Shown here one piece after another: positions 4,169 through 27,822 of a DNA stretch of 32,000 nucleotides. The position numbers were made by a program, and so were the translations under genes. Numbering within the stretch: position 1 is the stretch's first letter; each line of letters begins with the position of its first letter. Below the pieces are notes generated by a model. That model saw nothing but the letters and a program-made list of their open reading frames with translations. It searched no databases and was not told the origin of the DNA. The DNA is from Acutalibacteraceae bacterium (GTDB lineage: Bacteria > Bacillota > Clostridia > Oscillospirales > Acutalibacteraceae), in the NCBI GenBank assembly GCA_045544035.1, contig JAZPYE010000007.1:1-32000 (forward strand), read 5' to 3'.

Positions 4169-6106
4169 TTAAAGCTTTTTGGTTTTGATTTCTTCTACCA
4201 GCATAGCGGTGAAATCGGCAATGCTCATTGAGCCTAAATCGCCATCCTCGCCGCGGCGGCGAACCGATAAGGTTCCCTCTTCCACTTCCTTGTCACCAAT
4301 GATTGGCATATAAGGAATTTTTTGGAGCCTTGCCTCGCGGATTTTATAGCCGATTTTTTCATTCCTGCTATCAATTTCAACCAACATTCCGAGGGCTTCG
4401 AGCTGCTCCTTAATCTTTTCGGCATATTCAAAATGTCTATCGGCAATGGGGAGAAGCCTTACCTGAACGGGGGCAAGCCAGAGAGGAAATGCTCCTGCAT
4501 ATTTTTCAATAAGCAGAGCTAAAGTTCTCTCATAGCAGCCGATGGATGTTCTGTGAATAATGTAGGGATTTTTCTTTGTACCATCACTATCGGTGTATTC
4601 CATACCGAACTTTTCGGCAAGCATTTGGTCGATTTGAATGGTGATAAGGGTGTCCTCCTTGCCATGAACATTCTTAATTTGAATGTCAAGCTTGGGGCCG
4701 TAGAAGGCGGCTTCGCCGATACCCACCTTATATTTAATGCCAAGGTCGTTTAGGATATTCTCCATTTTGCTCTGTGCTTCATCCCACTGCTCGGCGGTGC
4801 CGATATATTTATCCTTATCCTCGGGGTCCCACTGAGAAAAACGGTAGGAAACATCCTCATATAATCCTAAGGTTTTGAGCATAAAGGTGGTAAGCTCTAA
4901 ACAGCGGCGGAATTCATCCTCAAGCTGGTCGGGGCGGCACATAAGGTGACCCTCAGAAATTGTGAACTGGCGAACACGGATAAGACCGTGCATTTCGCCA
5001 CTGTCCTCATTTCTAAAAAGGGTTGAGGTTTCGGCATAGCGAAGGGGCAAATCCCTATAAGAACGGGGGCGATTAAGATATGCCTGATACTGGAAGGGGC
5101 AGGTCATGGGACGAAGGGCAAAGCACTCCTTGGTTTCATCAGTTGGGTCGCCCATAACGAACATACCATCAAGATAATGGTCCCAGTGTCCCGAAATTTT
5201 ATAAAGGTCGCTCTTTGCCATTAAAGGAGTTTTGGTGCGCATCCAGCCACGGCGAGCCTCCTCATCCTCAACAAAACGCTGTAGAGTTTGAATGATTTGG
5301 GTGCCCTTGGGCAGCATGATGGGCAAACCCTGGCCTATAACATCGCAGGTGGTAAAGAGTTCGAGCTCGCGGCCAATTTTGTTGTGGTCACGCTTCTTTG
5401 CCTCCTCAATTTGCTCTAATCGGGCGATAAGCTCGCTTTGTTTCGGGAAGGCGGTGCCGTAAATTCTTTGAAGCATTTTTCTACTGGAATCACCGCGCCA
5501 ATAAGCGCCAGTTGCGGAGGTAAGTTTAAATGCCTTAACAAGGCCCGTGGACATAAGGTGAGCGCCGGCGCAAAGGTCAGTAAATTCGCCCTGCTTGTAA
5601 AGCGAAATCTCCGCATCCTCGGGCAGGTCGTTTATAAGCTCAACCTTGTAATCTTCATTAGCCTTTTTAAAGAAATCAAGAGCCTCGGCGCGAGATAGGG
5701 TAAAACGCTCAAGGGGTAAATCCTCTTTAACGATTTTCTTCATTTCCTCCTCAATAACGCTAAGGTCATCGGGGGTAAACATTTTTTCGCTGTCAATGTC
5801 ATAGTAAAAACCATCATCAACGGCAGGGCCAATGGCAAGTTTAACGTTTGGGAATAATCTCTTTACTGCCTGAGCCAAAATGTGGGATGCGGTGTGGCGG
5901 AAGGTCCACTTGCCGTAGTCATCATCAAAGGTTAAAATTTGAACCTCATCACCATCATTTAAAGCGGTTCTAAGGTCGGCATTTTTACCGTTAACCAAAG
6001 CGGCGCAGGCCTGCTTTGCAAAGCCGCCGCCAAGGGATTTAACAGCCTCATAAACGCTTAAAGAATTTTCAAATTCTCTTTCACTGCCATTCAAAATAAT
6101 TTTCAT
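4169..6106 (-). CDS. thrS: threonine--tRNA ligase
   Basis: I trimmed the ORF to the ATG at 6106 (MKIILNGSEREF..., TGS domain), which is preceded by GGAGGAAC. Class II aaRS and ThrRS motifs are present (HRTSIGCYERTLALLIE, FPLWLAPVQVRLLPI). The 36 codons upstream in the ORF track lie over the T-box leader. Confidence 0.95.
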   Translation of the reverse strand: MKIILNGSEREFENSLSVYEAVKSLGGGFAKQACAALVNGKNADLRTALNDGDEVQILTFDDDYGKWTFRHTASHILAQAVKRLFPNVKLAIGPAVDDGFYYDIDSEKMFTPDDLSVIEEEMKKIVKEDLPLERFTLSRAEALDFFKKANEDYKVELINDLPEDAEISLYKQGEFTDLCAGAHLMSTGLVKAFKLTSATGAYWRGDSSRKMLQRIYGTAFPKQSELIARLEQIEEAKKRDHNKIGRELELFTTCDVIGQGLPIMLPKGTQIIQTLQRFVEDEEARRGWMRTKTPLMAKSDLYKISGHWDHYLDGMFVMGDPTDETKECFALRPMTCPFQYQAYLNRPRSYRDLPLRYAETSTLFRNEDSGEMHGLIRVRQFTISEGHLMCRPDQLEDEFRRCLELTTFMLKTLGLYEDVSYRFSQWDPEDKDKYIGTAEQWDEAQSKMENILNDLGIKYKVGIGEAAFYGPKLDIQIKNVHGKEDTLITIQIDQMLAEKFGMEYTDSDGTKKNPYIIHRTSIGCYERTLALLIEKYAGAFPLWLAPVQVRLLPIADRHFEYAEKIKEQLEALGMLVEIDSRNEKIGYKIREARLQKIPYMPIIGDKEVEEGTLSVRRRGEDGDLGSMSIADFTAMLVEEIKTKKL

Positions 6107-6398
6107 AAAAGTTCCTCCAAAGTCACTTGAATTTAAAAAATAAAAAACGCCCCGCACGGCATATTTGCCGCACAGGACGAAAAAGACAATTCTTTTCCGC
6201 GGTTCCACCCGCATTGCAGTGAACTCACTGCCTCTTTAAAGATTCTCTAACGCAAATCACGCGGTCGGCTTCATTTATTTCACCGACACTCAAAGGTGGT
6301 CTTCACTTAAAATTTCCATTGGCGGCTTTCAGCCGATGACCGCCTTCTCTTTCTGAAAGGTTTTTAAGTTACTTTCCTTATCACAGTTTTAATAATAT
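6107..6398 (-). promoter_or_regulatory. T-box leader (tRNA-Thr sensing) with terminator/antiterminator, controlling thrS
   Basis: The minus strand reads AATGCGGGTGGAACCGCGG (plus 6197-6215), which is the conserved T-box sequence. It is followed by the hairpin GUCCUGUGCGGCA-AAUA-UGCCGUGCGGGGC plus GUUUUUUAUUUUUU (plus about 6133-6179). That stem needs four G-U pairs, so it forms only in the minus-strand RNA. The candidate specifier is ACC (Thr) followed by A, in ...AAGUGAAG-ACC-ACCUUUGAG (plus 6298-6300). An AGAGA element lies further 5'. Confidence 0.85.
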
Positions 6399-6991: not shown

Positions 6992-7588
6992 ATGTTTTTT
7001 AAGCGAAGCGCCGCCTCGAAATATGATTTTATCATAGTCGGCCTCGGAAATCCGGGCAAAGAATATGAAAAAACCCGCCACAACGCAGGCTTTATGGCGG
7101 TTGATAAAATAACCGAGAAGTTTGGTCACACAAACAAAAAGATTAAACACAAGGCCGAAATTTGCGACCTTAAAATCGGTGGCAAAACCCTCCTTATTGT
7201 AAAGCCCCAAACCTATATGAACTTGTCGGGCGAGGCCGTTGGCCCTCTAGCTCGTTACTATAAGGTTGCCCCGCAAAATGTCTTTGTTATTTTTGATGAC
7301 ATTTCACTGCCTGTGGGTAATATCCGCATTAGAAAAAAGGGGAGTGCAGGCGGCCACAACGGCATTAAAAGCCTGATTTCCAACCTCGGCACAGAGGATT
7401 TCCCAAGGCTTAAAATCGGTGTTGGCGCAAAGCCCCACCCTGATGCTGATTTAAAAAATCACGTTCTGGGCGGAATTCCAAAGGAACAGTTGCCCGAATT
7501 TGAAAAAGCACTGGATAATGCCGTTTCGGCGGTGGAAGAAATGCTTAAATGTGGCATTGAAAGTGCAATGAATAAATTTAATTCCTAA
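6992..7588 (+). CDS. pth: aminoacyl-tRNA hydrolase (peptidyl-tRNA hydrolase)
   Basis: 198-aa ORF. It carries IIVGLGNPGKEYEKTRHNAGF, the canonical Pth N-terminal motif with the catalytic His, and GHNGIKS. Confidence 0.95.
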   Translation: MFFKRSAASKYDFIIVGLGNPGKEYEKTRHNAGFMAVDKITEKFGHTNKKIKHKAEICDLKIGGKTLLIVKPQTYMNLSGEAVGPLARYYKVAPQNVFVIFDDISLPVGNIRIRKKGSAGGHNGIKSLISNLGTEDFPRLKIGVGAKPHPDADLKNHVLGGIPKEQLPEFEKALDNAVSAVEEMLKCGIESAMNKFNS

Positions 7589-7627: not shown

Positions 7628-7994
7628 ATGCCTTATCGCCCGGTTTAAAAATAAGCGCCATTAAAACGGCTGAGCAAACGGCTGTGGCAATTCCTGCGGC
7701 GGTGGCGGTGAGCCCGCCTGAAAGGGCGCCCATAAAGCCATATTGCTCTACCGCTTTTTGCACCCCTTTTGCAAGGGAATAACCAAAACCTGTAAGGGGC
7801 ACGCTGGCGCCTGCCTCGGCAAATTTTATAAGGGGCTCATAAAGCCCTATAGCCGTTAAAAACACGCCTGAAACCACATATCCAACAAGAATTCTTGCAG
7901 GGGTAAGGGCAGTGTTATCAATTAAAATTTGACCGATAACGCAAAATGCGCCGCCCACAACAAAGGCTTTAACAAGTGATAAAAATAATTCCAC
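7626..7994 (-). CDS. spoVAE: stage V sporulation protein AE (SpoVAEB-type small membrane protein)
   Basis: 122-aa ORF with a GTG start. VGGAFCVIGQILID...LTPA...GLYEPLIKFAEAGASVPLTGFG...IFKPG matches my recollection of Bacillus SpoVAEB along its full length. No spoVAC or spoVAD lies next to it. Confidence 0.8.
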   Translation of the reverse strand: MELFLSLVKAFVVGGAFCVIGQILIDNTALTPARILVGYVVSGVFLTAIGLYEPLIKFAEAGASVPLTGFGYSLAKGVQKAVEQYGFMGALSGGLTATAAGIATAVCSAVLMALIFKPGDKA

Positions 7995-8043: not shown

Positions 8044-9309
8044 TTATTTATTCTTAATTTTGTCCATATATGCCTTAAATGCCTGCTCGTTTTTGTTATC
8101 GCCAGGGGTATAATACTTTTTATCCTTTAACGCATCGGGCAGATATTGCTGTTTAACATAATGGTTTTCGAAATCGTGGGGATAAAGGTAAAACTGACCT
8201 TTTTTCTCCACCTCGGCGCTGTCATAATGCTTATTTTGCAAGCTTCTCGGAATGGGATAAACTTTGCCGAGCTCAACATCACTCATTGCCGCGTTTATAG
8301 CATCGTGAGCTGAATTCGATTTAGGTGCTGTTGCCACCAAAATAACGGCGTTTGCAAGGGGCAACCTGCCCTCAGGAAGCCCCAGCATTAGGGCAGTATC
8401 CACCGCCGCTTTTACAATCGGGATAATTTGGGGATAGGCAAGGCCAACATCCTCATTAGCGCAGGCAAGAAGCCGCCTGCAGGCACTTGGCAAATCACCG
8501 GCAGCCAGAAGCCTTGCAAGGTAATAAATAGCCGCATCGGGGTCGGAGCCGCGCATTGATTTATGATAGGCTGAAATAATGTCGTAATGCTCATCCCCTG
8601 CCCTGTCATAGCGCACGGGGCTGTTTTTAAGCAGCAGCTCAACATCATCATTTGAAATCTCAATACACTCTTTGCCTTTGTCGGCAGAAAGCACGCAAAG
8701 CTCTAATGTATTGAGGGCACGGCGAACGTCCCCTGCACCGCTACGGGCAATTTGGGCAAGACCCTTTTCGGAAAATTTAATCTCCTTGCCCTTTTCGCCC
8801 TTCAAAAATTCTACCGCACGGGTGAGCGCCTCTAAAATATCCTCTGAGGCAAGCGCCTTAAACTCGAAAACGGTGGAGCGGGAAAGCACCGCCGAATAAA
8901 CATAAAAGCTGGGATTTTCGGTGGTGGAGGCAATAAGGGTTATATCCCCACTTTCAATGTAGGATAAAAGAATTTGCTGTTGCTTTTTGTTAAAATACTG
9001 AATCTCATCAAGATATAAAAGAATTCCGCCTGCCGCCTCAATGGTATTAAGGGAAGCGATAATATCCTTTATATCCGCCGTGGAGGCAACGGTGGCGTTA
9101 AGATAGTGCAGTTTTTTGCCGCAGGTGGCGGCGATAATATTAGCCACGGTGGTTTTACCAACCCCCGAGGGGCCATAAAAAATCAGGTTGGGAATTTGAC
9201 CCGACTGAATAATACGGGTAAGTAGTTTTCCCTCACCCAAAATATGCTTTTGACCGCAAACTTCTGACAGCGTTTTAGGTCTTACACGGTCGGCAAGTGG
9301 GGAAGACAT
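8044..9309 (-). CDS. rarA: replication-associated recombination protein A (AAA+ ATPase RarA/MgsA)
   Basis: 421-aa ORF. It has LADRVRPKTLSEVCGQKHILG, a Walker A motif GPSGVGKTT, a Walker B motif LLYLDEIQYFNK, and the C-terminal MgsA domain (HYDIISAYHKSMRGSDPDAAIYYLARLL). Confidence 0.9.
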   Translation of the reverse strand: MSSPLADRVRPKTLSEVCGQKHILGEGKLLTRIIQSGQIPNLIFYGPSGVGKTTVANIIAATCGKKLHYLNATVASTADIKDIIASLNTIEAAGGILLYLDEIQYFNKKQQQILLSYIESGDITLIASTTENPSFYVYSAVLSRSTVFEFKALASEDILEALTRAVEFLKGEKGKEIKFSEKGLAQIARSGAGDVRRALNTLELCVLSADKGKECIEISNDDVELLLKNSPVRYDRAGDEHYDIISAYHKSMRGSDPDAAIYYLARLLAAGDLPSACRRLLACANEDVGLAYPQIIPIVKAAVDTALMLGLPEGRLPLANAVILVATAPKSNSAHDAINAAMSDVELGKVYPIPRSLQNKHYDSAEVEKKGQFYLYPHDFENHYVKQQYLPDALKDKKYYTPGDNKNEQAFKAYMDKIKNK

Positions 9310-15614: not shown

Positions 15615-17552
15615 TTAAATATCCAAATCGGTTGCAAAGACCGCGTTTTCTTCTATAAATTGCTTTCTGGGCTCAACCTCTTCACCCATAAGCATTGTAA
15701 AGGTTTCGTTTGCAAGCTCGGCATCGCTCATTGTAACCTGCAAAAATGTTCTGCGCTCGGGGTCAAGGGTGGTTTCCCAAAGCTGGTCGGGGTCCATTTC
15801 ACCAAGACCTTTATAACGCTGAACATCGGCTGTGCCGCCAAGCTTTTCAATATATTCAGCCTTTTCCTCATCGGTAAAGGCATCAAAATGCTGTTTGCCC
15901 TTTGAAACACGGAAAAGGGGAGGCTGTGCTAAATAAATGTGTCCTGTTTCAATAAGCTGTGGCATATAGCGGAAGAAGAAGGTGAGCAGCAGTGTTCTAA
16001 TGTGGCTTCCATCAACATCGGCATCGGCCATAATAACAATTTTATCATAACGTAACTTTGAAATGTCAAAGTTTTCGCCGATTCCGGTGCCCAAAGCCAC
16101 AATAACGGGGGTTAGCTTATCGTTGCCGTAAACCTTGTCATCTCTTGCCTTTTCAACGTTGAGCATTTTACCCCAAAGCGGGAGAATTGCCTGGTAGGTT
16201 GAGTTTCTGCCCTCAACAGCCGAACCGCCTGCAGAATCACCCTCAACGATGTAAATTTCGGTTTTGGTTGCATCATCGGAAATGCAGTCCTTAAGTTTTT
16301 CGGGCATTCTTGTTTTACCGCCAATTCCCGATTTATTTCTCGATGCATCTCTTGCCTTTTGAGCCGCCTCACGGGCGTTTGATGCCGCAATTGCCTTATC
16401 AATAACAATTTTAGCATCGGCAGGGTTTTCTTCTAGGTATTTATAAAGCTGGTCGTTAATGATGTCACGCACCATTTGACCAATTGAGGTGTTACCAAGC
16501 TTTGCCTTTGTTTGGCTTTCAAACTGCGCATCGGCAAGTTTAACCGAAACAACGGCAACGAGGCCCTCCATAATATCCTCACCCTTAAGGTTATCGGAAT
16601 CGACCTTTAACTTTTTAAAGTCGTGAGCATACTTATTAACAACTCTGGTCACCGTTTGGCGGAAAGCCTGCTCGTGGGTGCCTCCATCTATAGTGTGCAG
16701 TGTGTTAGCAAAGGACATAATTTTATTATCATAGGCTGTTGACCACATAAGTGCAATTTCAGCCGTTGAGTCACCCTTTGTGCCCGATAAATAAATAATA
16801 TCGGAAATGGGGTCCTTTTTAATTCCCTTAAGGAGATAGCTTACATATTCCTTAATACCGCCCTCAAACATAAGGTCATCGGTTCTTTTTTCAAAAACAT
16901 CGGAACGCTTGTCCTCTAAAACAATTCTAATGCCTGCATTAAGAAATGCCTGCTCACGAAGACGATTAAGTAAAATATCATAATCATAAGTAGTTGTGTC
17001 GGTAAATATTGTGGGGTCAGGCTTAAAAGTAACGGTGGTTCCTGTTTCACTTGTTTTGCCAATTTTCTCAAGGTCGGTTACAATAACGCCCTTTTCATAG
17101 CGCTGTTTGTAAATATCTGCACCGTCCTTAACCTCAACCTCAAGCCAAGAGGAGAGCGCGTTAACAACCGATGCGCCAACACCGTGCAAACCACCCGAAA
17201 CCTTATAGCCGCTGCCGCCAAACTTACCGCCTGCGTGAAGAATGGTGAAAACAACGGTAACCGAGGGAATTCCCTTTTGGGGATTAATACCAACGGGGAT
17301 ACCACGGCCGTTATCGGTAACACGAATTACACCATCATCAAGAATCTCTACAGTTATTTTTGTACAATAGCCTGCAAGTGCCTCATCTATAGAGTTGTCA
17401 ACAATCTCATAAACAAGGTGGTGTAAACCGCGCTCACCTGTTGAGCCTATGTACATACCCGGGCGTTTTCTTACCGCTTCAAGACCCTCAAGCACCTGAA
17501 TTGAAGATTCATCATAATTTTCGGTGACCTGTACTTTTAAATTCTCGCTCAT
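15615..17552 (-). CDS. gyrB: DNA gyrase subunit B
   Basis: I trimmed the ORF to the ATG at 17552 (MSENLKV..., AGGAG 8 nt upstream). Motifs present are YDESSIQVLEGLEAVRKRPGMYIG, GLHHLVYEIVDNSIDE, the Toprim EGDSAGGS and PLWGKMLNVEKA. Confidence 0.97.
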   Translation of the reverse strand: MSENLKVQVTENYDESSIQVLEGLEAVRKRPGMYIGSTGERGLHHLVYEIVDNSIDEALAGYCTKITVEILDDGVIRVTDNGRGIPVGINPQKGIPSVTVVFTILHAGGKFGGSGYKVSGGLHGVGASVVNALSSWLEVEVKDGADIYKQRYEKGVIVTDLEKIGKTSETGTTVTFKPDPTIFTDTTTYDYDILLNRLREQAFLNAGIRIVLEDKRSDVFEKRTDDLMFEGGIKEYVSYLLKGIKKDPISDIIYLSGTKGDSTAEIALMWSTAYDNKIMSFANTLHTIDGGTHEQAFRQTVTRVVNKYAHDFKKLKVDSDNLKGEDIMEGLVAVVSVKLADAQFESQTKAKLGNTSIGQMVRDIINDQLYKYLEENPADAKIVIDKAIAASNAREAAQKARDASRNKSGIGGKTRMPEKLKDCISDDATKTEIYIVEGDSAGGSAVEGRNSTYQAILPLWGKMLNVEKARDDKVYGNDKLTPVIVALGTGIGENFDISKLRYDKIVIMADADVDGSHIRTLLLTFFFRYMPQLIETGHIYLAQPPLFRVSKGKQHFDAFTDEEKAEYIEKLGGTADVQRYKGLGEMDPDQLWETTLDPERRTFLQVTMSDAELANETFTMLMGEEVEPRKQFIEENAVFATDLDI

Positions 17553-17593
17553 TTTTAATCTCCTGTTCAATAAATATGGAAACCATTTATTTA

Positions 17594-17615
17594 AAATGTT
17601 TCACGTGAAACATTT
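17594..17615. promoter_or_regulatory. 22-bp perfect palindrome AAATGTTTCACGTGAAACATTT in the remB-gyrB spacer
   Basis: Read directly from the sequence. It lies 16 nt after the remB stop and 42 nt before the gyrB ATG. It shares the core TGTTTCACGTGAAACA with 11964-11979. Confidence 0.6.
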
Positions 17616-17630
17616 ATTTTTTAAAAATTC

Positions 17631-17891
17631 TCACATTTTTTCAAGAAAACCGCTTCTTTTTAGCAGTGTTGTTGGCGAAATTTGAGAAAGATATATTTTT
17701 TGCTCTCCTTTTTCTTTGCATAAAATAAAGGATTTTGGCAGTTCATAAGAAACAACCGAAACCTGCCCTTTTTTTTCTGCTTCATTTAAAAATTTTCGGG
17801 TTTTTTTTGAAACAGTTGTTGTATCAAGATCAAAAATACCTATAATATCCTCGGTTTTAATAACCTTTTCCTGCCCTAAATGAAGATACAT
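17631..17891 (-). CDS. remB: DUF370 protein (RemB/YaaB-like)
   Basis: The ORF sits in the conserved position between recF and gyrB. The sequence MYLHLGQEKVIKTEDIIGIFDLD... is typical of DUF370. I prefer the ATG at 17891 (GAGGAA 8 nt upstream, 4 nt after the recF stop) to the ORF-track start at 17906. Confidence 0.8.
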   Translation of the reverse strand: MYLHLGQEKVIKTEDIIGIFDLDTTTVSKKTRKFLNEAEKKGQVSVVSYELPKSFILCKEKGEQKIYLSQISPTTLLKRSGFLEKM

Positions 17892-17895
17892 TTTT

Positions 17896-18963
17896 TTATT
17901 CCTCAATTTTTCCTTTTTTTATTTCTATTTTCTTACCTTCCTTTAATCGGTCGACAACATCAGGCTCACAGCAGGTTATAAGCACCTGCCAACCCTTTAT
18001 GTGGTTTAAAATATATTCCTGCCTTGAAGGGTCTAGTTCACTCATAACATCATCAAGCAGCGCCACGGGAAATTCCCCTGTTATCTTTTTAATAACATGG
18101 GCTTCGCTAAGTTTTAAACTAAGCGCCACGCTTCTCATTTGTCCCTGTGAGCCAAATTTTCTCGCATTTAGCCCGTTTATTAAAAATTCAATATCATCAC
18201 GGTGAGGTCCTGCCGAGGTTATTCCTGCAAGAGCGTCACTCTTCCTAGAATTAACAAGATATTGTGCAAAATTTTCTTCATTTGCGCTGTTTAGATAATT
18301 TATGTTTATTTTTTCTTTTTCACCAGACAAACCACTGTAAATTTCGGTTAAGATGGGTGTTATAAGTTCAATGTATCTTAAACGGTATTTAATTATTTTT
18401 TTACCGTTTTCGCAAATTTCAGCTTCAAATGCAGATAAAATCTTTAAATCAATATTTTCTTTTAAACTCTGCTTTAAAATTGCATTGCGCTGGGTCACAG
18501 CACGGGTGTAATCCTTTAAATAATTTATGTATTTAGGATAAAGCTGACCTATTGCAATATCAATAAAGCGGCGGCGCTCCTTTGGACCGTCTTTTATTAG
18601 AGAAAGGTCTGAAGGGGAGAAAACAATGGCATAAAAATTTCCTGCAAGCATGCCGGGTGATGAAAGAGGTTTTGAATTTATAAATGCTTTGCGCCTGTTT
18701 TCAATAATAATTTTTTCATCTTTTTCAACACCGTTTGATTTAAATGTTAAATCAAGAACTGCTTTTTCAGAGTTTAACATTTTAATTTCGCTGTCCTTAG
18801 CGCCTCTAAAACTTTTAGCACCTGTAAAAAGCCACACAGCCTCAATTAAATTTGTTTTGCCCTGTGCATTTTCACCATAAATAACATTTATCCCATCACT
18901 TGGAAAAAAAGAAATTTCTTTTATATTGCGAAAATTTTTAATTTTTAAACTTTTAATTTTCAT
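17896..18963 (-). CDS. recF: DNA replication/repair protein RecF
   Basis: 355-aa ORF. It has LKIKNFRNI, a Walker A motif GENAQGKTNLIEA, the SMC signature FGSQGQMRS and a Walker B motif LLDDVMSELD. Confidence 0.95.
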   Translation of the reverse strand: MKIKSLKIKNFRNIKEISFFPSDGINVIYGENAQGKTNLIEAVWLFTGAKSFRGAKDSEIKMLNSEKAVLDLTFKSNGVEKDEKIIIENRRKAFINSKPLSSPGMLAGNFYAIVFSPSDLSLIKDGPKERRRFIDIAIGQLYPKYINYLKDYTRAVTQRNAILKQSLKENIDLKILSAFEAEICENGKKIIKYRLRYIELITPILTEIYSGLSGEKEKININYLNSANEENFAQYLVNSRKSDALAGITSAGPHRDDIEFLINGLNARKFGSQGQMRSVALSLKLSEAHVIKKITGEFPVALLDDVMSELDPSRQEYILNHIKGWQVLITCCEPDVVDRLKEGKKIEIKKGKIEE

Positions 18964-19168
18964 TTTCTATAACAAAATTTTGTCCTTCAAAGGTAAAAAC
19001 ATCACCTGAATATAATTTTTTGCCCCTCATTAAACAAATTTCGCCGTTTACAGCCACTTCTCCATTTTGAATTACTATTTTCGCGTGTCCACCTGTCCCC
19101 ACGGCTGAGGCTAATTTTAAGGCCGAATCAAGTTTTATAAATTTTTCTTTTATATAAACCTTTTTCAT
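18953..19168 (-). CDS. yaaA: S4 domain-containing RNA-binding protein YaaA
   Basis: 71-aa ORF in the canonical slot between dnaN and recF. IKLDSALKLASAVGTGGHAKIVIQNGEVAVNGE is an S4 fold motif. It overlaps recF by 11 nt. Confidence 0.85.
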   Translation of the reverse strand: MKKVYIKEKFIKLDSALKLASAVGTGGHAKIVIQNGEVAVNGEICLMRGKKLYSGDVFTFEGQNFVIENEN

Positions 19169-19171
19169 TTT

Positions 19172-20272
19172 TTATTTTAACCTCATGGGCATAATCATAT
19201 ATTTATATTCATCGTGTTCGGTGGGATTAATAACAACGCCTGAATTTGCGCCATTAAAAAGAATTTCAACCCTTTCTTCCTCTGTTGCCTTTAAAGCCTC
19301 TAATAAATAGCGGCTGTTAAGACCAATTTCAAATGAAGCACCCTCAAGAGAAATTTCATATTCCTCTTTAGCGCGGCCAACTGCAGTAGCGCAAGAAAAG
19401 GAAATTTTATCCTCCTCAAAAAGACAACGAACAGGTGTTGAAAAACTGTCACTTATAATAATTGACATTCTCTCAATAATGTTAATTAAATCCCTTGTGT
19501 TAATAAAAACTCTTTGTTTAAATTCATCGGGAATGGTTTTTTTGTAATTTACAAAATCACCCTCAAAAACACGTGATATAAAGGTATAACCATTAATAAT
19601 GAAGGCAACAAGCTTTCTTGAAATTTTAATATCAACATCCTCACAGTCTTCACCAATAAGTTTTACAACCTCGCTTATTGATTTACCGGGAATAATGAAT
19701 TCAAAATTTTTATCAGTTGCAACCTTTTGGCGGCGAATTGCAAGGCGATAACCATCAATGGCAACAAACTGTAAGGTTTTATTTTCCACCGAAACATTTA
19801 CACCTGTTAAAATTGGGCGGGTTCCCTCATTTTGAGCAACAGCAAAAAGTGTTCCTCTCACCATATCCTTTAAAATTTCGGCCTCAATGGTTACATTTTC
19901 GCCCTCAGAAAAGAAGGGAACCTCTGGATAAACCTTGGCATCCATTCCCATAATGTCAAAAACAGCGCCGCCTGATGAAATGTGGCACATTAAACGGTCA
20001 TCACTTTCAATTCTAACCTGAATTCCGTTCATTCTTCTTAAAATATCAGAAAGAAAGCGTGCAGGAAGAACAATATCTCCTTCTACACTTGTGTTGGCAT
20101 AAATTTCCTTTTTAATACCCATTTCAAGGTTATAAGATAAAAGTGTTATTTTTCCCTTTTCGGCGCTTATTAAAATTCCCTCTAAAACGGGCTGAGAGGT
20201 TTTGTTTGATACAATCCTTGATAAATTAGTTACAGCATCAAGCAGTTTTTCTCTTTCAACTTCAAAAATCAT
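19172..20272 (-). CDS. dnaN: DNA polymerase III subunit beta (sliding clamp)
   Basis: 366-aa ORF. The N-terminus F.V.REKLLDAV..LSRIV..KTSQPVLEGILI, the C-terminal MIMPMRL and its position after dnaA support the call. Confidence 0.95.
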   Translation of the reverse strand: MIFEVEREKLLDAVTNLSRIVSNKTSQPVLEGILISAEKGKITLLSYNLEMGIKKEIYANTSVEGDIVLPARFLSDILRRMNGIQVRIESDDRLMCHISSGGAVFDIMGMDAKVYPEVPFFSEGENVTIEAEILKDMVRGTLFAVAQNEGTRPILTGVNVSVENKTLQFVAIDGYRLAIRRQKVATDKNFEFIIPGKSISEVVKLIGEDCEDVDIKISRKLVAFIINGYTFISRVFEGDFVNYKKTIPDEFKQRVFINTRDLINIIERMSIIISDSFSTPVRCLFEEDKISFSCATAVGRAKEEYEISLEGASFEIGLNSRYLLEALKATEEERVEILFNGANSGVVINPTEHDEYKYMIMPMRLK

Positions 20273-20492
20273 AAAAATTCTCCTTTAAAAGAATATTTTA
20301 ATTATCAGTATTATTATATTATGTGGAAATGTGGGATAAGTATTTAAATCCCTTTAAAACAAAGAAAAAAAAAGGTGGAAAAAAATTTAATAAAAATTGA
20401 ATAAAAAATATGATAAAAAAGTTATAAACGGGGGTGTTAATAAGTAAAGGTTAAATTATGTTAAAATTGGGGATAACTTGTCCTAAAAAATT
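20273..20492. other. candidate oriC segment (dnaA-dnaN spacer) with degenerate DnaA boxes and an A/T-rich unwinding tract
   Basis: Matches to TGTGGATAA are TGGGGATAA at 20468-20476 (8/9), TGTGGAAAT at 20322-20330 (7/9), TGTGGGATAA at 20330-20339 (consensus with one extra G) and TGTTAATAA at 20435-20443 (7/9). The tract 20361-20420 is almost pure A/T. The Bacillus-type bipartite origin places the DUE in this spacer. Confidence 0.6.
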
Positions 20493-21806
20493 TTACTGCG
20501 CTTCCTGCAAATTTCTTATCATGTTTTCAATCATTTCTTTTTCGTAAGGCTTGTCTTTTAAAAAATTTTCAATTTTCTTAATGTTATAAAGCACGGTGGT
20601 GTGGTCACGGCCAAAATGGTCTCCAATTGCTTTATAGGACATATCGGTCATTTCTCTTACTATAAACATTGCAACCTGGCGCGCCTGAGCTAACTGTTGG
20701 GTTTTACGATTTGAATAAATATCGGCTTCGGAAACGTTATAAGAACGGGCAACCTCGCTTATAATTTTTTCAACGCGAACGGGCTCTGGCGCCGAATCAT
20801 CAACAACTTTTTTAATAAAATCCTGAACAACCGAAACGGTGGGGGTGCCGCCCTGAATTTGAACATAGGCTTTAATGTTTTTAACAACGCCTTCAAGCTG
20901 CCTTGTGTTTTTCTTAATATGGTCGGCAATAAGGAAAACAAGGGAATCATCAATGGTGAGATTTAATTCGTTTGCCTTTTTCTTTATAATTCCAACCCGT
21001 GTTTCAAAATCAGGAGGGGTAATATCAGCGAAAAGACCGCCCTCAAATCGGGAGCGAATGCGGTCATCAAGGGTTTTAATATCCTTTGGAGGTCTGTCCA
21101 TTGTAACAATGATTTTTTTATTGTTTTGGTAAAGAGCGTTGAAGGTGTTAAAAAATTCCTCCTGGGTTTGCTCCTTACCGGCAATAAACTGAATGTCATC
21201 AATAAGCAAAATATCCACCGAACGGAAACGGTTTCTGAATTCGGTTATGGTGCCATCCTTAATTGCGGCAATCATTTGGTTTGTGAAATCTTCACACCTT
21301 AAATATTCAATTTTGCGTGAGGGGAAATGCTTTAGAGAATGATTTTTAACCGCCAGTAGCAGATGGGTTTTGCCAACGCCCGAATTACCGTAAATAACAA
21401 GAGGGGTTTGGGCATTTGACTCGTTGTTTGCAATAGAAAAGGATGCCGCGTGGGCAAAGCGGTTTGTGGGGCCAACGATAAAGTTATCAAAGGTAAAGCA
21501 TGAGGCAAAGGAAAAATCTTCGGCAACCTGTTCAGTTAGAACTGAACCGTTTTCATCCTCAATTAAAATAATGATTTCAAAATCAATTCCCATAATTTGT
21601 TTTAAGGCACTTTTTAAAAGCTGGGTGTAGTTATCCTCAATGATACCTTTTTTATATTCATTATCAATTCCCATAACGAACTCGCCGGCGCGAAGCTCAA
21701 TGGGGTGAAGGTCCTTAAGCCAGCAGTTAAAGGCAACCTCGGTGATACTCTCAAGGCAAACCTCTTTAACGGCGGCCCAAACATCGTTTAGTGATTCTAT
21801 CTTCAA
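20493..21806 (-). CDS. dnaA: chromosomal replication initiator protein DnaA
   Basis: 437-aa ORF with a TTG start at 21806 (GAGGAA 8 nt upstream). It has FTFDNFIVGPTNRFAHAA, a Walker A motif GNSGVGKTHLL, LLIDDIQF, and a domain IV with DHTTVLYN. Confidence 0.97.
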   Translation of the reverse strand: MKIESLNDVWAAVKEVCLESITEVAFNCWLKDLHPIELRAGEFVMGIDNEYKKGIIEDNYTQLLKSALKQIMGIDFEIIILIEDENGSVLTEQVAEDFSFASCFTFDNFIVGPTNRFAHAASFSIANNESNAQTPLVIYGNSGVGKTHLLLAVKNHSLKHFPSRKIEYLRCEDFTNQMIAAIKDGTITEFRNRFRSVDILLIDDIQFIAGKEQTQEEFFNTFNALYQNNKKIIVTMDRPPKDIKTLDDRIRSRFEGGLFADITPPDFETRVGIIKKKANELNLTIDDSLVFLIADHIKKNTRQLEGVVKNIKAYVQIQGGTPTVSVVQDFIKKVVDDSAPEPVRVEKIISEVARSYNVSEADIYSNRKTQQLAQARQVAMFIVREMTDMSYKAIGDHFGRDHTTVLYNIKKIENFLKDKPYEKEMIENMIRNLQEAQ

Positions 21807-22100
21807 AATATTTCCTCCCCTGCATTTTTTATTGTATTAAGTTAAATAAATAATTATATATCATAACATTATACATTATAACACTAAAATTTATAAATTA
21901 CAATAAGAAAATATAATATTATATATAATATATAATAAAAACTATAGAAATTCACATTTCTTACAAAAAGAGTACAAAAAGAAGGCAAAATTTAAAACCC
22001 CGCAGGGCTCAAATTTAAAGGTTTTAAGAAAAAATGTATTATTTAGAAAATAACAGCAAAAATAAAAAGGAACAAAAATAAAAAAGGAGAAAAGGAAAAA
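21807..22100. other. A/T-rich divergent control region between dnaA and the ABC transporter (possible second oriC half and promoters)
   Basis: The region is 294 bp with long ATATAATA-type low-complexity runs (21900-21940). I found only a 6/9 DnaA-box match (AAATTCACA, about 21948-21956). Coding polarity switches here. Confidence 0.35.
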
Positions 22101-25110: not shown

Positions 25111-26458
25111 GGGCATTTTGCTCCCCGTTTTTTCCCTGCCGGGTAAGGAGAGGGTTGGCACCCTAGGTGTGGGTGCCCGCTTTTTTATTGATTTTTTAAA
25201 GGAAACGGGGCAAAACTATTGGCAAATTCTCCCCCTGGGCCCCGTAGGGCAGGGCAACTCCCCCTATTCTTCCATTAGCGCCTTTGCAGGCAACGAACTT
25301 TATATTGACCTTGAGGAACTTTATAAAAAAGGGCTTTTAAAAGAAAAGCCCCGGGAAAGTGAAAATACGGGTAGGGTGGATTATAAAACTCTTAAAGCCG
25401 AAAAAATGCCGTGGCTTATTCTCGCGGCAAAGAACTTTAAGCAGGATAAGGAAATTCTTAAATTTTTAAGGGAAAACGATTTTTGGCTTTCAGATTATGC
25501 AAAATATTGTGAAAAAAGGAAAAAAATACCCCAAAACATCACAAAAGTGTTGCAGTTTTTCTTTTTTTCACAGTGGGGAAATATTCGCGGGTATGCAAAC
25601 GAGCGAGGCATTAAAATTATTGGCGATTTGCCCTTTTATGTGGGGGCGAACTCGGTTGACATAATATCTAACCCTAAAAACTTCAGGGTGGGCGAGGATT
25701 TAACCCCTACACTGCTTTCCGGTGTGCCGCCCGATGAGTTTTCAGAGGATGGCCAACTGTGGGAAACACCTGTTTATAATTTTGAAAAACAGCGCACCGA
25801 TGGCTTTAAATTTTGGCGACAAAGGATAAATCAGGCGGCCGCCCTTTATGACTGCGTGCGCCTTGACCATTTTCGTGCCTTTTCCTCCTTTTATGCCGTG
25901 CCTATGGGACAAAAAACCGCCAAAAACGGACAGTGGATTAGGGGTGTGGGTATGCCTTTTTTCGAGGCACTAAAAAAAGAATTTTCAAAAATTCAGGTCA
26001 TTGCTGAGGACCTGGGATTTTCTGATGATGACCTTAAAATGCTTATTGAGAAAACAGGCTTTCCCACAATGAAGGTGCTTCAGTTCGCCTTTGACGGCAG
26101 GGAGGACAACCCCTTTTTGCCTCAAAATTTTGATAAAAACTGTGTGTGTTACACAGGCACCCACGATAACGACACCGCCGCCTCCTGGTATGAAAACGCC
26201 GATGAGAAAACCAAAAAACGGCTACTCCAAATTTGCGGCGATGCGGGCTTTACACCCTGCGAAAAGCTGATAACCCTGGCAATGAAAAGCAGGGCAGACA
26301 CCGTGATAATTCCCTTCGCCGACTACCTTGAAAGGGGAAATGAAGCCCGCATTAACACCCCTGGAAGCGAGAGCGAGGATAATTGGTCCTGGCGGGCAAA
26401 GGAAAGCGATTTCACAGAGGATTTAAAGAAAAAGGTTGGGCGGTTATCGGAGAGGTAA
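25094..26458 (+). CDS. malQ: 4-alpha-glucanotransferase (amylomaltase, GH77)
   Basis: GILLPVFSLPGKERVGTLG, WQILPLGP...NSPYSSISAFAGN, VRLDHFRAF, IIGDLPFYV, VIAEDLG and YTGTHDND are GH77 signatures. The probable start is GTG at 25094 (GAGGGGG upstream). The ORF-track ATG at 24956 lies inside the permease gene. Confidence 0.85.
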   Translation: MQSRGKGILLPVFSLPGKERVGTLGVGARFFIDFLKETGQNYWQILPLGPVGQGNSPYSSISAFAGNELYIDLEELYKKGLLKEKPRESENTGRVDYKTLKAEKMPWLILAAKNFKQDKEILKFLRENDFWLSDYAKYCEKRKKIPQNITKVLQFFFFSQWGNIRGYANERGIKIIGDLPFYVGANSVDIISNPKNFRVGEDLTPTLLSGVPPDEFSEDGQLWETPVYNFEKQRTDGFKFWRQRINQAAALYDCVRLDHFRAFSSFYAVPMGQKTAKNGQWIRGVGMPFFEALKKEFSKIQVIAEDLGFSDDDLKMLIEKTGFPTMKVLQFAFDGREDNPFLPQNFDKNCVCYTGTHDNDTAASWYENADEKTKKRLLQICGDAGFTPCEKLITLAMKSRADTVIIPFADYLERGNEARINTPGSESEDNWSWRAKESDFTEDLKKKVGRLSER

Positions 26459-26487
26459 AAGGGAGGCTTTTACACCCAAAACACTCT

Positions 26488-26521
26488 AAAAAAACAAACC
26501 TCGGCAGAAATGCCGAGGTTT
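26488..26521 (-). terminator. intrinsic terminator of the toxin/immunity operon
   Basis: The minus-strand RNA forms AAACCUCGGCA-UUUC-UGCCGAGGUUU followed by GUUUUUUU. On the plus strand no T-run follows the hairpin. Confidence 0.7.
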
Positions 26522-26549
26522 ACATAATGTTGAGAGCAAATGAATAGTT

Positions 26550-26867
26550 TTATGATATGATTTTATATGTAAAATTGTTTTCTATAGAACTCACTCTATC
26601 AAACACTCTTAACATGATTTTGCACTCTTCTTGCAATTTTTTATCTAATGAATCCAAATTATGTATTTCAACAACATATTTTTCATCATCAAATAAATAT
26701 CTGAGACAATCCCAAAGAGCATCCCAATTTTCGCCGTAATACTGGGGTAAACCAAATTTTTCTTTAAGCATTAAGTGAATTTCGCCTAAATATTTGCATT
26801 TGGAAAAATCTAATATTATAGGGTTTTCGGTTATTTCTTTAAATGCGTGATAATCATTATAATTCAC
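26550..26867 (-). CDS. barstar-family ribonuclease inhibitor (immunity protein)
   Basis: 105-aa ORF with a GTG start. GLPQYYGENWDALWDCL matches barstar ALPEYYGENLDALWDCL, which contains the barnase-contacting Tyr29, Asp35 and Asp39. Its AGGAGG RBS overlaps the toxin stop codon. Confidence 0.85.
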   Translation of the reverse strand: MNYNDYHAFKEITENPIILDFSKCKYLGEIHLMLKEKFGLPQYYGENWDALWDCLRYLFDDEKYVVEIHNLDSLDKKLQEECKIMLRVFDRVSSIENNFTYKIIS

Positions 26868-26878
26868 TTTTTTACCTC

Positions 26879-27448
26879 CTATATAATTTCAAAAAATGTT
26901 TTGTAGTGGTCATATGTTACAAATATTAACCCATCATTTGAATAAACAACTCTCTGATTATTTCTATAACCAAATCTGTAATTTATATCCGCCTCATACC
27001 AAATACGCCCCTCTTTGCTCGGCAAATGACCATTATCATTATAATATTCTCCGCCAAATATCATCTTATCTGGACAAGACATTGATAGATTCGCTAATTT
27101 AGGCATCCAACCATTTGCTTTAGCTTCAGCACTTGTCAAATAATAATTCGGCAATTTTGATTCAAATTTTAAAGTCCAGTCTGCACCGTTTAAACCATTT
27201 ATAGTAGCAGTTCCGGCTTTTACAGTTTTCATAACAAGTATACGACATCTACACATATTATGCAACCTCGGTTCTTTTTCGGGCTTTTCGTTTATAAGCC
27301 ATATTTTTCCGTGGAGACTTCTGCAGTCATAGCAAGTTCTGATGTCTAAGTGAGCTATCCAATTTTTATATCTATTGCTTTCGCCAAAATCCGGTTTCCA
27401 ACTAAAACCATTAATTATTTGCAACAAAAGATAAGCAAAAATATCCAT
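26879..27448 (-). CDS. barnase-type ribonuclease toxin with an N-terminal MuF/SPP1-gp7 domain remnant
   Basis: Residues about 81-189 align end to end with mature barnase. The matches are LPNYYLTSAEAKANGW / LPDNYITKSEAQALGW, GRIWYEADINY / GRTWREADINY (Glu73), YRNNQRVVY / FRNSDRILY (Arg83, Arg87) and YDHYKTF / TDHYQTF (His102). Residues about 27-72, NWIAHLDIRTCYDCRSLHGKIW...PRLHNMCRCRI, match the C-terminal W..D.RTC..C..L.G...H..CRC motif of phage head-morphogenesis (Mu F / SPP1 gp7) proteins. Confidence 0.8.
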   Translation of the reverse strand: MDIFAYLLLQIINGFSWKPDFGESNRYKNWIAHLDIRTCYDCRSLHGKIWLINEKPEKEPRLHNMCRCRILVMKTVKAGTATINGLNGADWTLKFESKLPNYYLTSAEAKANGWMPKLANLSMSCPDKMIFGGEYYNDNGHLPSKEGRIWYEADINYRFGYRNNQRVVYSNDGLIFVTYDHYKTFFEII

Positions 27449-27471
27449 AAATACACCTCCTTCTAGAAACT

Positions 27472-27500
27472 ATTTTAAGTTTAAAAAAATGGACATACAA
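27472..27500 (-). promoter_or_regulatory. candidate sigma-A promoter of the toxin/immunity operon
   Basis: The minus strand has TTGTAT (plus 27495-27500), a 17-nt spacer, then TAAAAT (plus 27472-27477). A GGAGGTG RBS sits 7 nt before the ATG at 27448. Confidence 0.45.
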
Positions 27501-27706
27501 CGACATCTTTGCGACATTTTTTAAAAATATAAACGTTTTAAAAATGTAGCCTCAACGGGATACTCTGCGCTGCTTGATTTTTCGACCGTTCCGAACGGTT
27601 GCGAAAAATCTGCGTTGCTCGAGACTTCACAGTCCGAAAAGGCTATCGCGCCTTTTCGGCTGCTTCGACGAACCCCTCGGGGTCCTCATCCCTTAAAGCG
27701 CGAATA

Positions 27707-27742
27707 GAAAAAAACGAGAACCGCACAATGTGCGATTCTCGT
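27707..27742 (-). terminator. intrinsic terminator of tRNA-Arg
   Basis: The minus-strand RNA forms ACGAGAAUCGCACA-U-UGUGCGGUUCUCGU (one G-U pair) followed by UUUUUUU. Confidence 0.8.
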
Positions 27743-27745
27743 TTT

Positions 27746-27822
27746 TGGCGCGCTTTAAGGGATTCGAACCCCTGACCTTTTGGTCCGTAGCCAAACGCTC
27801 TATCCAGCTGAGCTAAAAGCGC
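27746..27822 (-). tRNA. tRNA-Arg (anticodon ACG), CCA encoded
   Basis: The minus strand reads GCGCTTT-TA-GCTC-AGCTGGATA-GAGC-G-TTTGG-CTACGGA-CCAAA-AGGTC-AGGGG-TTCGAAT-CCCTT-AAAGCGC-G-CCA. This folds into a clean cloverleaf with anticodon loop CU-ACG-GA. The 61-aa ORF 27643..27828 is its translation shadow. Confidence 0.92.

Follow-up and report, generated by a model that had tools for sequence, protein, structure and literature searches.

The 32,000-nucleotide (nt) stretch of an Acutalibacteraceae bacterium genome analysed here (contig JAZPYE010000007.1; hereafter the window) carries, between malQ and a tRNA-Arg(ACG) gene, a pair of minus-strand genes that encode a barnase-type ribonuclease (RNase) preceded by the core of a phage MuF head protein, and a barstar-type immunity protein. 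We propose that the pair is a polymorphic inter-strain toxin-immunity cassette, with a MuF-core plus barnase toxin and barstar as its immunity, a reading to which we give a probability of about 0.55. We have high confidence that the cassette, made up of an operator/promoter, the toxin gene and the immunity gene, is a self-contained and horizontally mobile unit of ~1 kb, and also that the N-terminal domain of the toxin is homologous to the conserved core of the MuF/SPP1-gp7 head proteins of phages. Our confidence in the mode of action, by which the protein would work as a polymorphic toxin between strains, is moderate. The parts of the cassette are the following.

26879..27448, minus strand: toxin gene, 189 amino acids (aa), ATG start
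27215..27448, minus strand: N-terminal domain of the toxin, residues 1-78, homologue of the MuF/SPP1-gp7 core (PF04233, TIGR01641, PHROG, BFVD)
26882..27202, minus strand: barnase (RNase) domain, toxin residues 83-189 (phmmer, PF00545, AlphaFold2/Foldseek)
26550..26867, minus strand: barstar-family immunity gene, 105 aa, GTG start
27456..27461, minus strand: AGGAGG ribosome-binding site (RBS) of the toxin gene, read from the sequence
26875..26880, minus strand: AGGAGG RBS of the barstar gene, read from the sequence, overlapping the toxin stop codon TAG (26881-26879)
27472..27516, minus strand: promoter/operator of the cassette, a motif kept across contexts

Toxin residues 83-188 align without a gap to residues 4-109 of barnase (phmmer E 5e-27), barnase position n being toxin position n+79, and the protein scores 40.3 bits against the Pfam Ribonuclease family PF00545, for which the cut-off is 24. 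According to Foldseek searches of the PDB, the C-terminal half of an AlphaFold2 model, built from an alignment of 48 family members (predicted local distance difference test, pLDDT, 92.7; predicted TM score, pTM, 0.88), lies on barnase and binase with target TM scores of 0.85-0.89 and root-mean-square deviations (rmsd) of 1.2-2.1 Å; identity to barnase in the structural alignments is 45-48%. Glu73 is the general base of barnase and His102 its general acid. Their equivalents, E152 and H181, are present in the window toxin and kept in at least 90% of the family, and those of Arg83 and Arg87, R162 and R166, are invariant across the 48 members. Lys27 of barnase, which stabilises the transition state, is replaced by S106, at a position that holds S, G, N, P, Y, K or R family-wide, and Arg59/Glu60 of the guanine-recognition loop are replaced by D138/N139, also at positions that vary in the family. 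In barnase, K27, R59 and E60 contact both barstar and the substrate. The domain is probably an active RNase, which barstar would block in the producer. No Sec signal or pro-peptide was found in the toxin, whose N-terminus (MDIFAYLLLQIINGFSWKPD) has no basic n-region and is modelled as a folded domain with pLDDT 78-97.

Against PF01337 (Barstar), the immunity protein scores 71 bits (cut-off 23.4), and against the barstar structures it gives a phmmer E of 3.6e-9. It has kept the barnase-contact helix (YYGENWDALWDCL), which covers the equivalents of Tyr29, Asp35 and Asp39 of barstar, and reads LPQYYGENWDALWDCL where barstar has LPEYYGENLDALWDCL. PF01337 is its sole domain, no DNA-binding domain being present, and the gene order is toxin and then immunity. 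The two genes are 11 nt apart; the TAG of the toxin (26881-26879) overlaps the AGGAGG at 26880-26875, which sits 7 nt before the GTG of the barstar gene, an arrangement that is predicted to couple the translation of barstar to that of the toxin. The same overlap of stop codon and RBS is found in the related loci L001 and L008, and in all related loci barstar adjoins its RNase gene. A first-pass annotation made from the letters of the window had proposed a toxin-immunity pair of the barnase/barstar type, with the Glu73, Arg83, Arg87 and His102 equivalents retained and Lys27 changed to Ser, a barstar homologue with its contact helix, translational coupling through the stop codon, and a toxin without signal peptide. 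The profile searches that it suggested gave matches above cut-off for both proteins, and its other points on the pair agree with the domain, fold and helix results given here, the N-terminus being a folded Cys/His module.

That annotation had left the N-terminal ~80 residues of the toxin without an identity, and it is here that our analysis adds most to it. The similarity of residues ~25-78 is to the C-terminal end of the MuF domain of phages: PF04233 is matched over profile positions 63-111 of 112 (E 1.6e-6; 29.3 bits, just below the Pfam cut-off of 29.6), TIGR01641, the model of SPP1 gp7, with E 3.2e-7 (30.7 bits, for a cut-off of 39.65), and PHROG families of head morphogenesis and minor head proteins with E-values from 1e-9 to 1e-5. 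Foldseek searches of the predicted viral structures in BFVD gave nearly exclusively minor capsid/MuF proteins, and every confident match belonged to them, over ~47-50 residues at rmsd 1.4-2.3 Å and 30-40% identity. C39, C42, H63 and C66 are invariant family-wide and R67 and C68 are kept in at least 90% of the members, a Cys/His pattern that is probably a zinc site. Because its N-domain is derived from MuF, the protein can be linked to the phage-delivered "MuF toxins".

The toxin belongs to a large family, as a database search with it returned 1551 matches. Among the best 120 of these, nearly all are 188-191 aa long, down to 52% identity, and most are annotated with both PF04233 and PF00545; hundreds of clusters share a conserved start, length and N-terminal sequence. 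When the N-domain alone was used for an exhaustive HMMER search, 203 cluster representatives were recovered. Among the 150 listed of these, nearly all are no longer than ~205 aa, with the N-domain at the very N-terminus, and none is a full-length MuF-barnase protein. Of 24 representatives that were aligned, all but two run into barnase-like sequence or break off there, so that the N-domain appears to be dedicated to barnase. Pairwise ratios of nonsynonymous to synonymous substitution rates (dN/dS) are ~0.1-0.3 in both toxin domains wherever the synonymous rate (dS) is not saturated, which indicates that both domains are maintained by selection.

How the family varies is what argues for an inter-strain role. 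Three sister strains, L007, L008 and L010, carry the cassette in the same slot, between yunB and a transketolase gene, with the following contents.

L008: toxin A; barstar A
L007: toxin A, identical to that of L008; barstar A, a barstar 85% identical to that of the window, and a barstar of type H
L010: toxin B; barstar H and an A-type barstar, 96-97% identical to the A barstars of L007/L008

In the flanks, the promoter and codons 1-93 of the toxin, the DNA of L008 and L010 is ~99% identical; identity falls to 50-75% in the barnase core and returns to 92% over the last 60 nt. Relative to L008, L010 has a 340-nt insertion with barstar H. The first barstar of L010, which is cognate to its toxin, and the type H barstar of L007 share 95-100% identity. 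The window toxin and that of L001 form another mosaic, with dS saturated in the N-domain and 0.5 in the barnase core. Loci hold between one and three barstar genes, and there is an orphan barstar in L018 and an intact barstar beside a truncated toxin in L064. Polymorphic toxins are recognised by a constant N-terminus, by a C-terminal toxin that is displaced together with its cognate immunity, and by the retention of foreign immunities (PMC3482391). The constant N-terminus, the joint displacement of core and barstar and the retained foreign barstars of this family thus argue that the cells meet toxins made by other strains.

The mobility of the cassette is apparent from its genomic contexts, which were drawn from 10 exact-protein look-ups and comprise eight unrelated chromosomal neighbourhoods, all of them in gut Clostridia. 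The exact window toxin had no record of its own, and it was through close variants (P0279) that the loci of its species were reached.

malQ ... DUF3048: the window, L060-L062
yabP/yqfD ... purL: L001-L006
yunB/ligA ... transketolase: L007-L011
SBP_bac_5 ... helix-turn-helix (HTH)/YpsA: L013-L015
dnaB/dnaC-like ... GH3: L067, L068
aspS ... HTH: L069, L070
glyS/rpmH ... dnaA: L071
aspartate aminotransferase ... aldo-keto reductase/spoVT: L072-L081

In all eight contexts the unit consists of the toxin gene followed by 1-3 barstar genes, and in none of them is there a recombinase or phage gene beside it. The guanine-plus-cytosine content (GC) of the toxin gene, 0.31-0.41, is below that of the upstream flank in every host (0.38-0.52), and also below that of the downstream flank wherever the sequence of the latter is present. 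Sporulation genes (yabP, yqfD, yunB, spoVT) occur in three of the eight neighbourhoods.

In six of these eight contexts the cassette is preceded, at a distance of 118-508 nt and on its own strand, by a tRNA gene (Arg-ACG twice, Arg-CCG, His, Leu-TAG and Ala-GGC), an adjacency with a binomial P of ~3e-13 given a chance of ~0.005 per site, as estimated from 418 kb of control loci; the significance that the first-pass annotation attached to the neighbouring tRNA is thereby upheld. Direct repeats surround the cassette in L001 (35 nt, 1434 nt apart; 7764-7798 and 9198-9232, 97% identical, containing the tRNA-His terminator hairpin) and in L069 (77 nt, 1102 nt apart; 5917-5993 and 7019-7095, 84% identical, containing another terminator hairpin). 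These repeats are far longer than the target duplications of transposons, and the cassette holds no recombinase. Unlike L001 and L069, the window itself has no flanking direct repeats of 14 nt or more. In the case of L060, which is from the same species as the window and has the cassette in the same slot, 24 nt of the tRNA-Arg 3' end (CGAATCCCTTAAAGCGCGCCAAAA) are repeated exactly and in direct orientation ~150 nt downstream of the tRNA. Copies of a tRNA 3' end are the classical footprint of integration at tRNA sites, and we read this one as a probable att-like trace of a further integration. In L060 (4416-5000) the copy has a terminator of its own, and other sequence has replaced most of the structured element that is described below for the tRNA side of the slot.

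The promoter region travels with the genes. In the window it holds three tandem boxes and a -10-like hexamer, all on the minus strand.

27516-27510, minus strand: TGTCGCA box
27505-27499, minus strand: TGTCGTT box
27495-27489, minus strand: TGTCCAT box
27477-27472, minus strand: -10-like TAAAAT, beginning 18 nt after the start of the last box

The TGTCG boxes recur with a period of 10-11 nt (consensus aaATGTCGGTGAATGTCGCAaat) upstream of the toxin in eight independent contexts, with one box mismatch in L013 and TGGCG as the second box in L072; they are absent from L065, L066 and L071. In the six contexts in which the spacing was read, the last box starts exactly 18 nt before a TATAAT-like -10. 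The motif is almost confined to the cassettes, with 3 unrelated matches in 770 kb of loci. Spo0A recognises the box TGTCGAA, in which it contacts G2, C4 and G5 (PMC3485338), and both the 7+3-nt arrangement and the conserved G2, C4 and G5 of the cassette boxes agree with this. Furthermore, the synthesis of barnase in Bacillus amyloliquefaciens depends on Spo0A (PMC7604891). We put forward Spo0A, or a like activator, as a hypothetical regulator of the boxes, and do not go beyond a hypothesis because box positions 6-7 (consensus AA) are not conserved. A sigma-G or sigma-E type promoter was also considered from the hexamers and dropped, the matches being too loose. In L069 (6001-6642) the start called for a 213-aa toxin (GTG) falls inside the conserved operator, and the real start is most likely a downstream ATG (MGMDIF...), giving a protein of ~190 aa like the rest of the family; members of 208-226 aa in the database may be similarly over-called.

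In the window, the two genes are the only sizeable open reading frames (ORFs) between malQ and tRNA-Arg(ACG). The features that frame them are the following.

ending at 26458, plus strand: malQ (GH77)
26494..26523, minus strand: intrinsic terminator hairpin with T-run, downstream of the barstar gene (terminator scan)
27548..27705, minus strand: GC-rich structured element of ~158 nt, a four-way junction (folding, conservation in relatives)
27710..27746, minus strand: terminator hairpin of tRNA-Arg (terminator scan)
27746..27822, minus strand: tRNA-Arg(ACG), directly upstream of the cassette and on the same strand (ARAGORN; Rfam tRNA, 67.6 bits)

The AT-rich islet reported in this interval by the first-pass annotation is real. 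Positions 26545-27555 are the lowest 1-kb stretch of the 32 kb, with a GC of 0.307 (window mean 0.428, standard deviation 0.045), and GC at third codon positions is 0.28 in the toxin and 0.25 in the barstar gene, as against 0.46-0.52 in malQ, DUF3048, yebC and the ABC transporter genes. However, the limits given for the islet had to be corrected: it ends at ~27535-27555 and not at 27745, as the tRNA-proximal ~190 nt (27556-27745) have a GC of 0.52 and are kept in relatives without the cassette. Moreover, the windowed GC that does put the interval below its flanks also puts the dnaA-dnaN-recF block at 17.3-21.9 kb at 0.31-0.35, nearly as AT-rich as the islet. Because this block lies in the same window, composition alone does not prove a foreign origin; we have rejected low GC as stand-alone proof, and it is the comparative data that carry the point. 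The block (17300-21900) comprises dnaA (20493..21806), dnaN (19172..20272) and a recF-like gene (17896..18963), all on the minus strand, and its position means that only ~5 kb separate the islet from the probable origin of replication. The cassette of L071 stands directly beside dnaA. Elsewhere in the window, a T-box leader (Rfam RF00230, 116 bits; 6170-6393, minus strand) is found upstream of a 681-aa ORF (4169..6214, minus strand).

The comparison of the malQ to tRNA-Arg interval in relatives, which the first-pass annotation had asked for, was made by scanning species-representative genomes with MalQ, and three close relatives with the malQ ... tRNA-Arg ... DUF3048 frame were found. L018 (MalQ 87% identical) has a barstar 94% identical to that of the window with its RBS kept. 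At L018 7472-8100 the toxin is gone save for its last ~15 nt and is replaced by ~250 nt of unrelated sequence with a 39-aa ORF, which had no Pfam match; the idea that this ORF is a fragment of a four-helix-bundle protein was dropped for that reason. L016 (MalQ 91%) and L017 (83%) have in the slot an HTH gene and a 122-125-aa YAcAr/SLOG gene; at L016 4700-5470 and L017 7560-8210, the Cro/C1-type HTH (PF13443, HTH_26) is divergent from the YAcAr/cpYpsA-related SLOG gene (PF10686). A YpsA plus HTH pair also follows directly after the barnase cassette in L013. As the slot holds other cargo in three related species, the barnase/barstar pair is accessory and not core. The frame of the slot is conserved on both sides, by the malQ-side hairpin (26494..26523), which is present in L016, L017 and L018 whatever the cargo, and by the ~160-nt GC-rich element on the tRNA side, so that the variable slot spans about 26534-27535. 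It looks like a small hot spot for conflict-type cassettes.

The structured element is not carried by the mobile cassette but forms part of the slot's frame, on the side of the tRNA. It is 100% identical in L018 (8090-8257) despite a MalQ that is only 87% identical, near-identical in L016 (5520-5690), and diverged in L017 (8225-8400), where several of its hairpins show compensatory changes. Its minimum free energy is -67.7 kcal/mol (z -5.1), it folds better on the minus strand, and its 5' end is an inverted copy of the T-arm and the 3' part of the acceptor of tRNA-Arg. It matched no Rfam family at the gathering or a permissive threshold, and an exact-pattern scan of viral contigs gave no hit. 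The element may be an undescribed small RNA or a relic of a recombination site. A similar "AAGGGAT-GAACCC-GNRA-GGGTT" piece is found after tRNA-Ala in L072.

We also looked at phage and plasmid collections. The GenBank phage collection (50,697 records) gave a single weak match to the N-domain and no barnase, and the 2.9 million viral contigs of IMG/VR gave 2 loci, L065 and L066. In plasmids we found barnase-domain matches only, to the S-layer ribonucleases of Bacillus, none of them with the N-domain. On these searches we rejected the view that the cassette is a plasmid family or a common phage family. L065 (7923-8845) is on a contig of an HK97-like siphophage with terminase, portal, protease-capsid and major tail genes, and without a MuF gene after the portal; the cassette separates the tail assembly chaperone gene from the tape-measure gene there, and is inserted in the opposite orientation. 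The toxin of L066 (7959-8504) comes two genes behind an "internal virion protein" and in the same orientation, and in L064 a truncated toxin (P0121, 82 aa) with an intact barstar is found immediately beyond the lysis module of a prophage. The 32-kb window is devoid of phage genes, those for packaging included, and so are the surroundings of the other 7 chromosomal contexts. The cassette thus behaves like a moron that is able to reside in phages and is mostly chromosomal.

With these data, we propose the following course of events. In the producer cell, barstar, co-translated from the same mRNA, would plug the active site of the RNase, as expected from homology. The N-domain would be the constant trafficking or targeting part of the toxin, and the barnase core and its cognate barstar would be swapped together by recombination. 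By keeping extra or orphan barstars, strains would build up protection from toxins that their neighbours make. It is most likely that the toxin enters the cytoplasm of other cells, where it would degrade RNA and harm those cells that are without the matching barstar. It could ride in phage or phage-like particles, for which the MuF core is the best lead. Expression probably needs an activator at the tandem TGTCG boxes, whose arrangement resembles that of Spo0A boxes; the host bacteria form spores. For insertion, the cassette itself favours sites immediately downstream of tRNA genes, with prophages as occasional targets.

MuF proteins offer a precedent for such a journey. SPP1 gp7 is carried into the procapsid via the portal (PMC6316719), and it has been proposed that MuF-fused toxins are injected with the phage DNA (PMC6316719, PMC5576092), although virion carriage has so far been shown for no MuF toxin (PMC10083569). 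The catalogue of Zhang et al. (2012; PMC3482391) already names MuF as one of the ways in which Tox-Barnase is trafficked and gives Imm-Barstar as the matching immunity, so that the combination of MuF, Tox-Barnase and Imm-Barstar was known. Several observations weigh against our proposal. Of the MuF Pfam domain, the toxin has no more than the last ~50 positions, and its scores fall slightly short of the curated cut-offs. Hardly any sequenced phage carries a member of the family, and in L065 the cassette is in the tail module and not in the position of a MuF gene. Neither the window nor the surroundings of the 8 chromosomal copies hold an export or delivery apparatus. The C-terminal domain is always barnase, which means that polymorphism occurs within one toxin fold and not across folds, and multi-barstar arrays were seen in one species group only. 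Finally, the likeness to Spo0A is a 5-of-7 match to the box core.

The alternative that survives best, although we consider it unlikely, is that of the first-pass annotation, which had compared the pair to an intracellular toxin-antitoxin (TA) or abortive-infection module. According to it, a cytoplasmic barnase held by barstar would be unleashed when barstar is lost or titrated, during phage infection or after the loss of the element, and would kill or arrest the cell or, as an addiction module, stabilise the carrier DNA; the MuF-like N-domain could then be a decoy sensor that binds the phage portal. The missing signal peptide, the folded Cys/His N-terminus and the tight translational coupling of the two genes are all compatible with an RNase that stays inside the cell. 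So is the moron-like nature of the cassette, which with its own promoter sits in housekeeping regions, at a prophage end (L064) and in a phage tail module (L065), and whose slot in relatives holds other conflict-type cargo (SLOG plus HTH). An addictive pair would also explain the persistence of the cassette beside tRNA genes after the loss of a larger carrier element. However, neither protein matches any of the 5027 PADLOC defence models, the toxin gene comes first, and the immunity protein has no DNA-binding domain. Barstar is an extremely tight and stable inhibitor of barnase and not a labile antitoxin. The distribution of the genes does not favour this alternative either: loci with 2-3 divergent barstars that match the toxins of sister strains, and the displacement of core and immunity together, are typical of delivered polymorphic toxins, and in L018 the orphan barstar has remained intact after deletion of the toxin. 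For these reasons we prefer the polymorphic toxin over a TA module.

A bolder version of phage delivery, which we offer as a speculation with the odds clearly against it, is that the ~50-residue MuF-core zinc module is a minimal portal-binding tag that loads the barnase in trans into the capsids of phages, resident or infecting, or of phage-like particles, that are encoded elsewhere. The virions would then inject the RNase, a matching barstar would save the recipient, and the Spo0A-like operator would tie production to stationary phase or sporulation. If this were true, the cassette would be a kin-discriminating weapon borrowed from phages, or a "booby trap" with which the host poisons phage progeny, and toxin production would be linked to sporulation as it is with the cannibalism toxins of Bacillus.

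It is improbable that the protein is an extracellular RNase of the classical Bacillus barnase type. Such an enzyme, having no signal peptide, would leave the cell for example when a subpopulation or the sporulation mother cell lyses or when a prophage is induced, and would serve nutrient scavenging or the turnover of matrix or RNA; barstar would protect the producer before release, and the N-domain would be a nucleic-acid-binding or stabilising addition, for which the DNA binding of SPP1 gp7 (PMC10083569) is a precedent. The closeness to barnase (45-48% identity over a full-length alignment), the Spo0A-like boxes that parallel the Spo0A dependence of barnase, and the spore-forming hosts, with yabP, yqfD, yunB and spoVT in the neighbourhoods, are in line with this. 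However, the toxin has neither signal nor pro-peptide, and a nuclease acting as a public good gives no reason for the diversification of core and barstar or for the extra or orphan barstars. Moreover, the variable K27, R59 and E60 positions fit co-evolution of the interface better than a conserved housekeeping catalysis. We strongly disfavour the last alternative, a non-functional relic left at a tRNA attachment site by decay of a prophage MuF-barnase gene down to its 3' end: only the end of the MuF domain is present, the toxin gene adjoins a tRNA, truncated copies exist (P0121, 82 aa, L064) and L060 has an att-like 24-nt copy of the tRNA-Arg 3' end, but start, length (188-191 aa) and N-terminal sequence are conserved over hundreds of clusters to 52% identity, promoter and RBS are the cassette's own and conserved, dN/dS is 0.1-0.3 in both domains, and no full-length MuF-barnase parent occurs among the 150 N-domain matches listed. 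A random truncation of a prophage MuF toxin was rejected as the origin of the 189-aa protein because of the conserved length, start and promoter and the purifying selection.

By sequence and fold, the pair belongs to the barnase and barstar families, with Lys27, the guanine loop and the secretion signal as the exceptions. With barnase-barstar of B. amyloliquefaciens, and with binase of B. pumilus, it shares the RNase fold, the catalytic residues and the contact helix of barstar, and with the former it may share regulation by Spo0A. It differs from Bacillus barnase in having no signal or pro-peptide and, instead, an 80-residue MuF-core Cys/His domain, and in that K27, R59 and E60 are not conserved in its family. 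Furthermore, the two genes are adjacent, translationally coupled and part of one mobile cassette, and in this family core and barstar diversify together and extra barstars accumulate, all of which sets it apart from the Bacillus pair.

The MuF toxins of temperate phages (PMC5576092, PMC3482391) likewise have a MuF-derived N-part, a C-terminal toxin and a small immunity gene directly downstream, and they too are found in gut Firmicutes. Part of their definition is a toxin domain in a C-terminal extension of 100 aa or more, with a small immunity ORF after it; the 107-aa barnase domain and the 105-aa barstar correspond to these. Examples of MuF toxins are Apk2 of Bacteroides caccae and Bxa of B. 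stercoris (PMC10083569). However, the window family has only the last ~50 residues of the MuF core, in proteins of 189 aa as against 300-1000 aa, and lies outside the DNA-packaging module, without portal or terminase neighbours. Moreover, MuF toxins were described as found exclusively in (pro)phages (Jamet et al. 2017; PMC5576092), whereas this family forms a standalone cassette in housekeeping regions beside tRNA genes.

Contact-dependent inhibition (CDI) CdiA-CT/CdiI, Rhs, the LXG toxins of the type VII secretion system and MafB have in common with the cassette a constant N-part, the joint displacement of toxin and immunity, and retained or orphan immunity genes, but the family described here has none of their secretion or trafficking domains, repeats or stalk. 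It varies, in contrast to them, within the barnase fold, and orphan toxin fragments are missing from its arrays, in which every gene is an immunity gene. Phage morons and type II TA systems are also small autonomous units with their own promoter and terminator and a composition unlike that of the host, inserted between operons, at a prophage end or within a phage structural module. The cassette departs from type II TA in that it matches no known TA or defence family, has the toxin gene first, and has in barstar a plug of the active site and not a DNA-binding labile antitoxin. Taken together, the pair probably acts as polymorphic toxin systems do, and is a relative of the MuF toxins that stands outside the (pro)phage packaging context that defines them and has a MuF remnant only.

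The minimal ~189-aa architecture, the standalone chromosomal cassette, the preference for sites downstream of tRNA genes, the shared operator and the barstar arrays were not found described in the searchable literature. The preference for tRNA-downstream sites, which occurs without a recombinase in the cassette, and the operator that travels with the genes are worth following. The system is small and tractable, since assays for barnase and barstar exist and the catalytic and zinc-ligand mutants to be made are obvious. What MuF-fused toxins do, and whether they do travel in phage heads, is an open question (PMC10083569), and this toxin family may define the minimal module for MuF function, be it portal binding, packaging or nucleic-acid binding. 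Finally, this is a large family, with 1551 matches, in the abundant Oscillospirales of the gut, and its polymorphism and immunity arrays suggest a strain-level competition among gut bacteria that has gone unrecognised.

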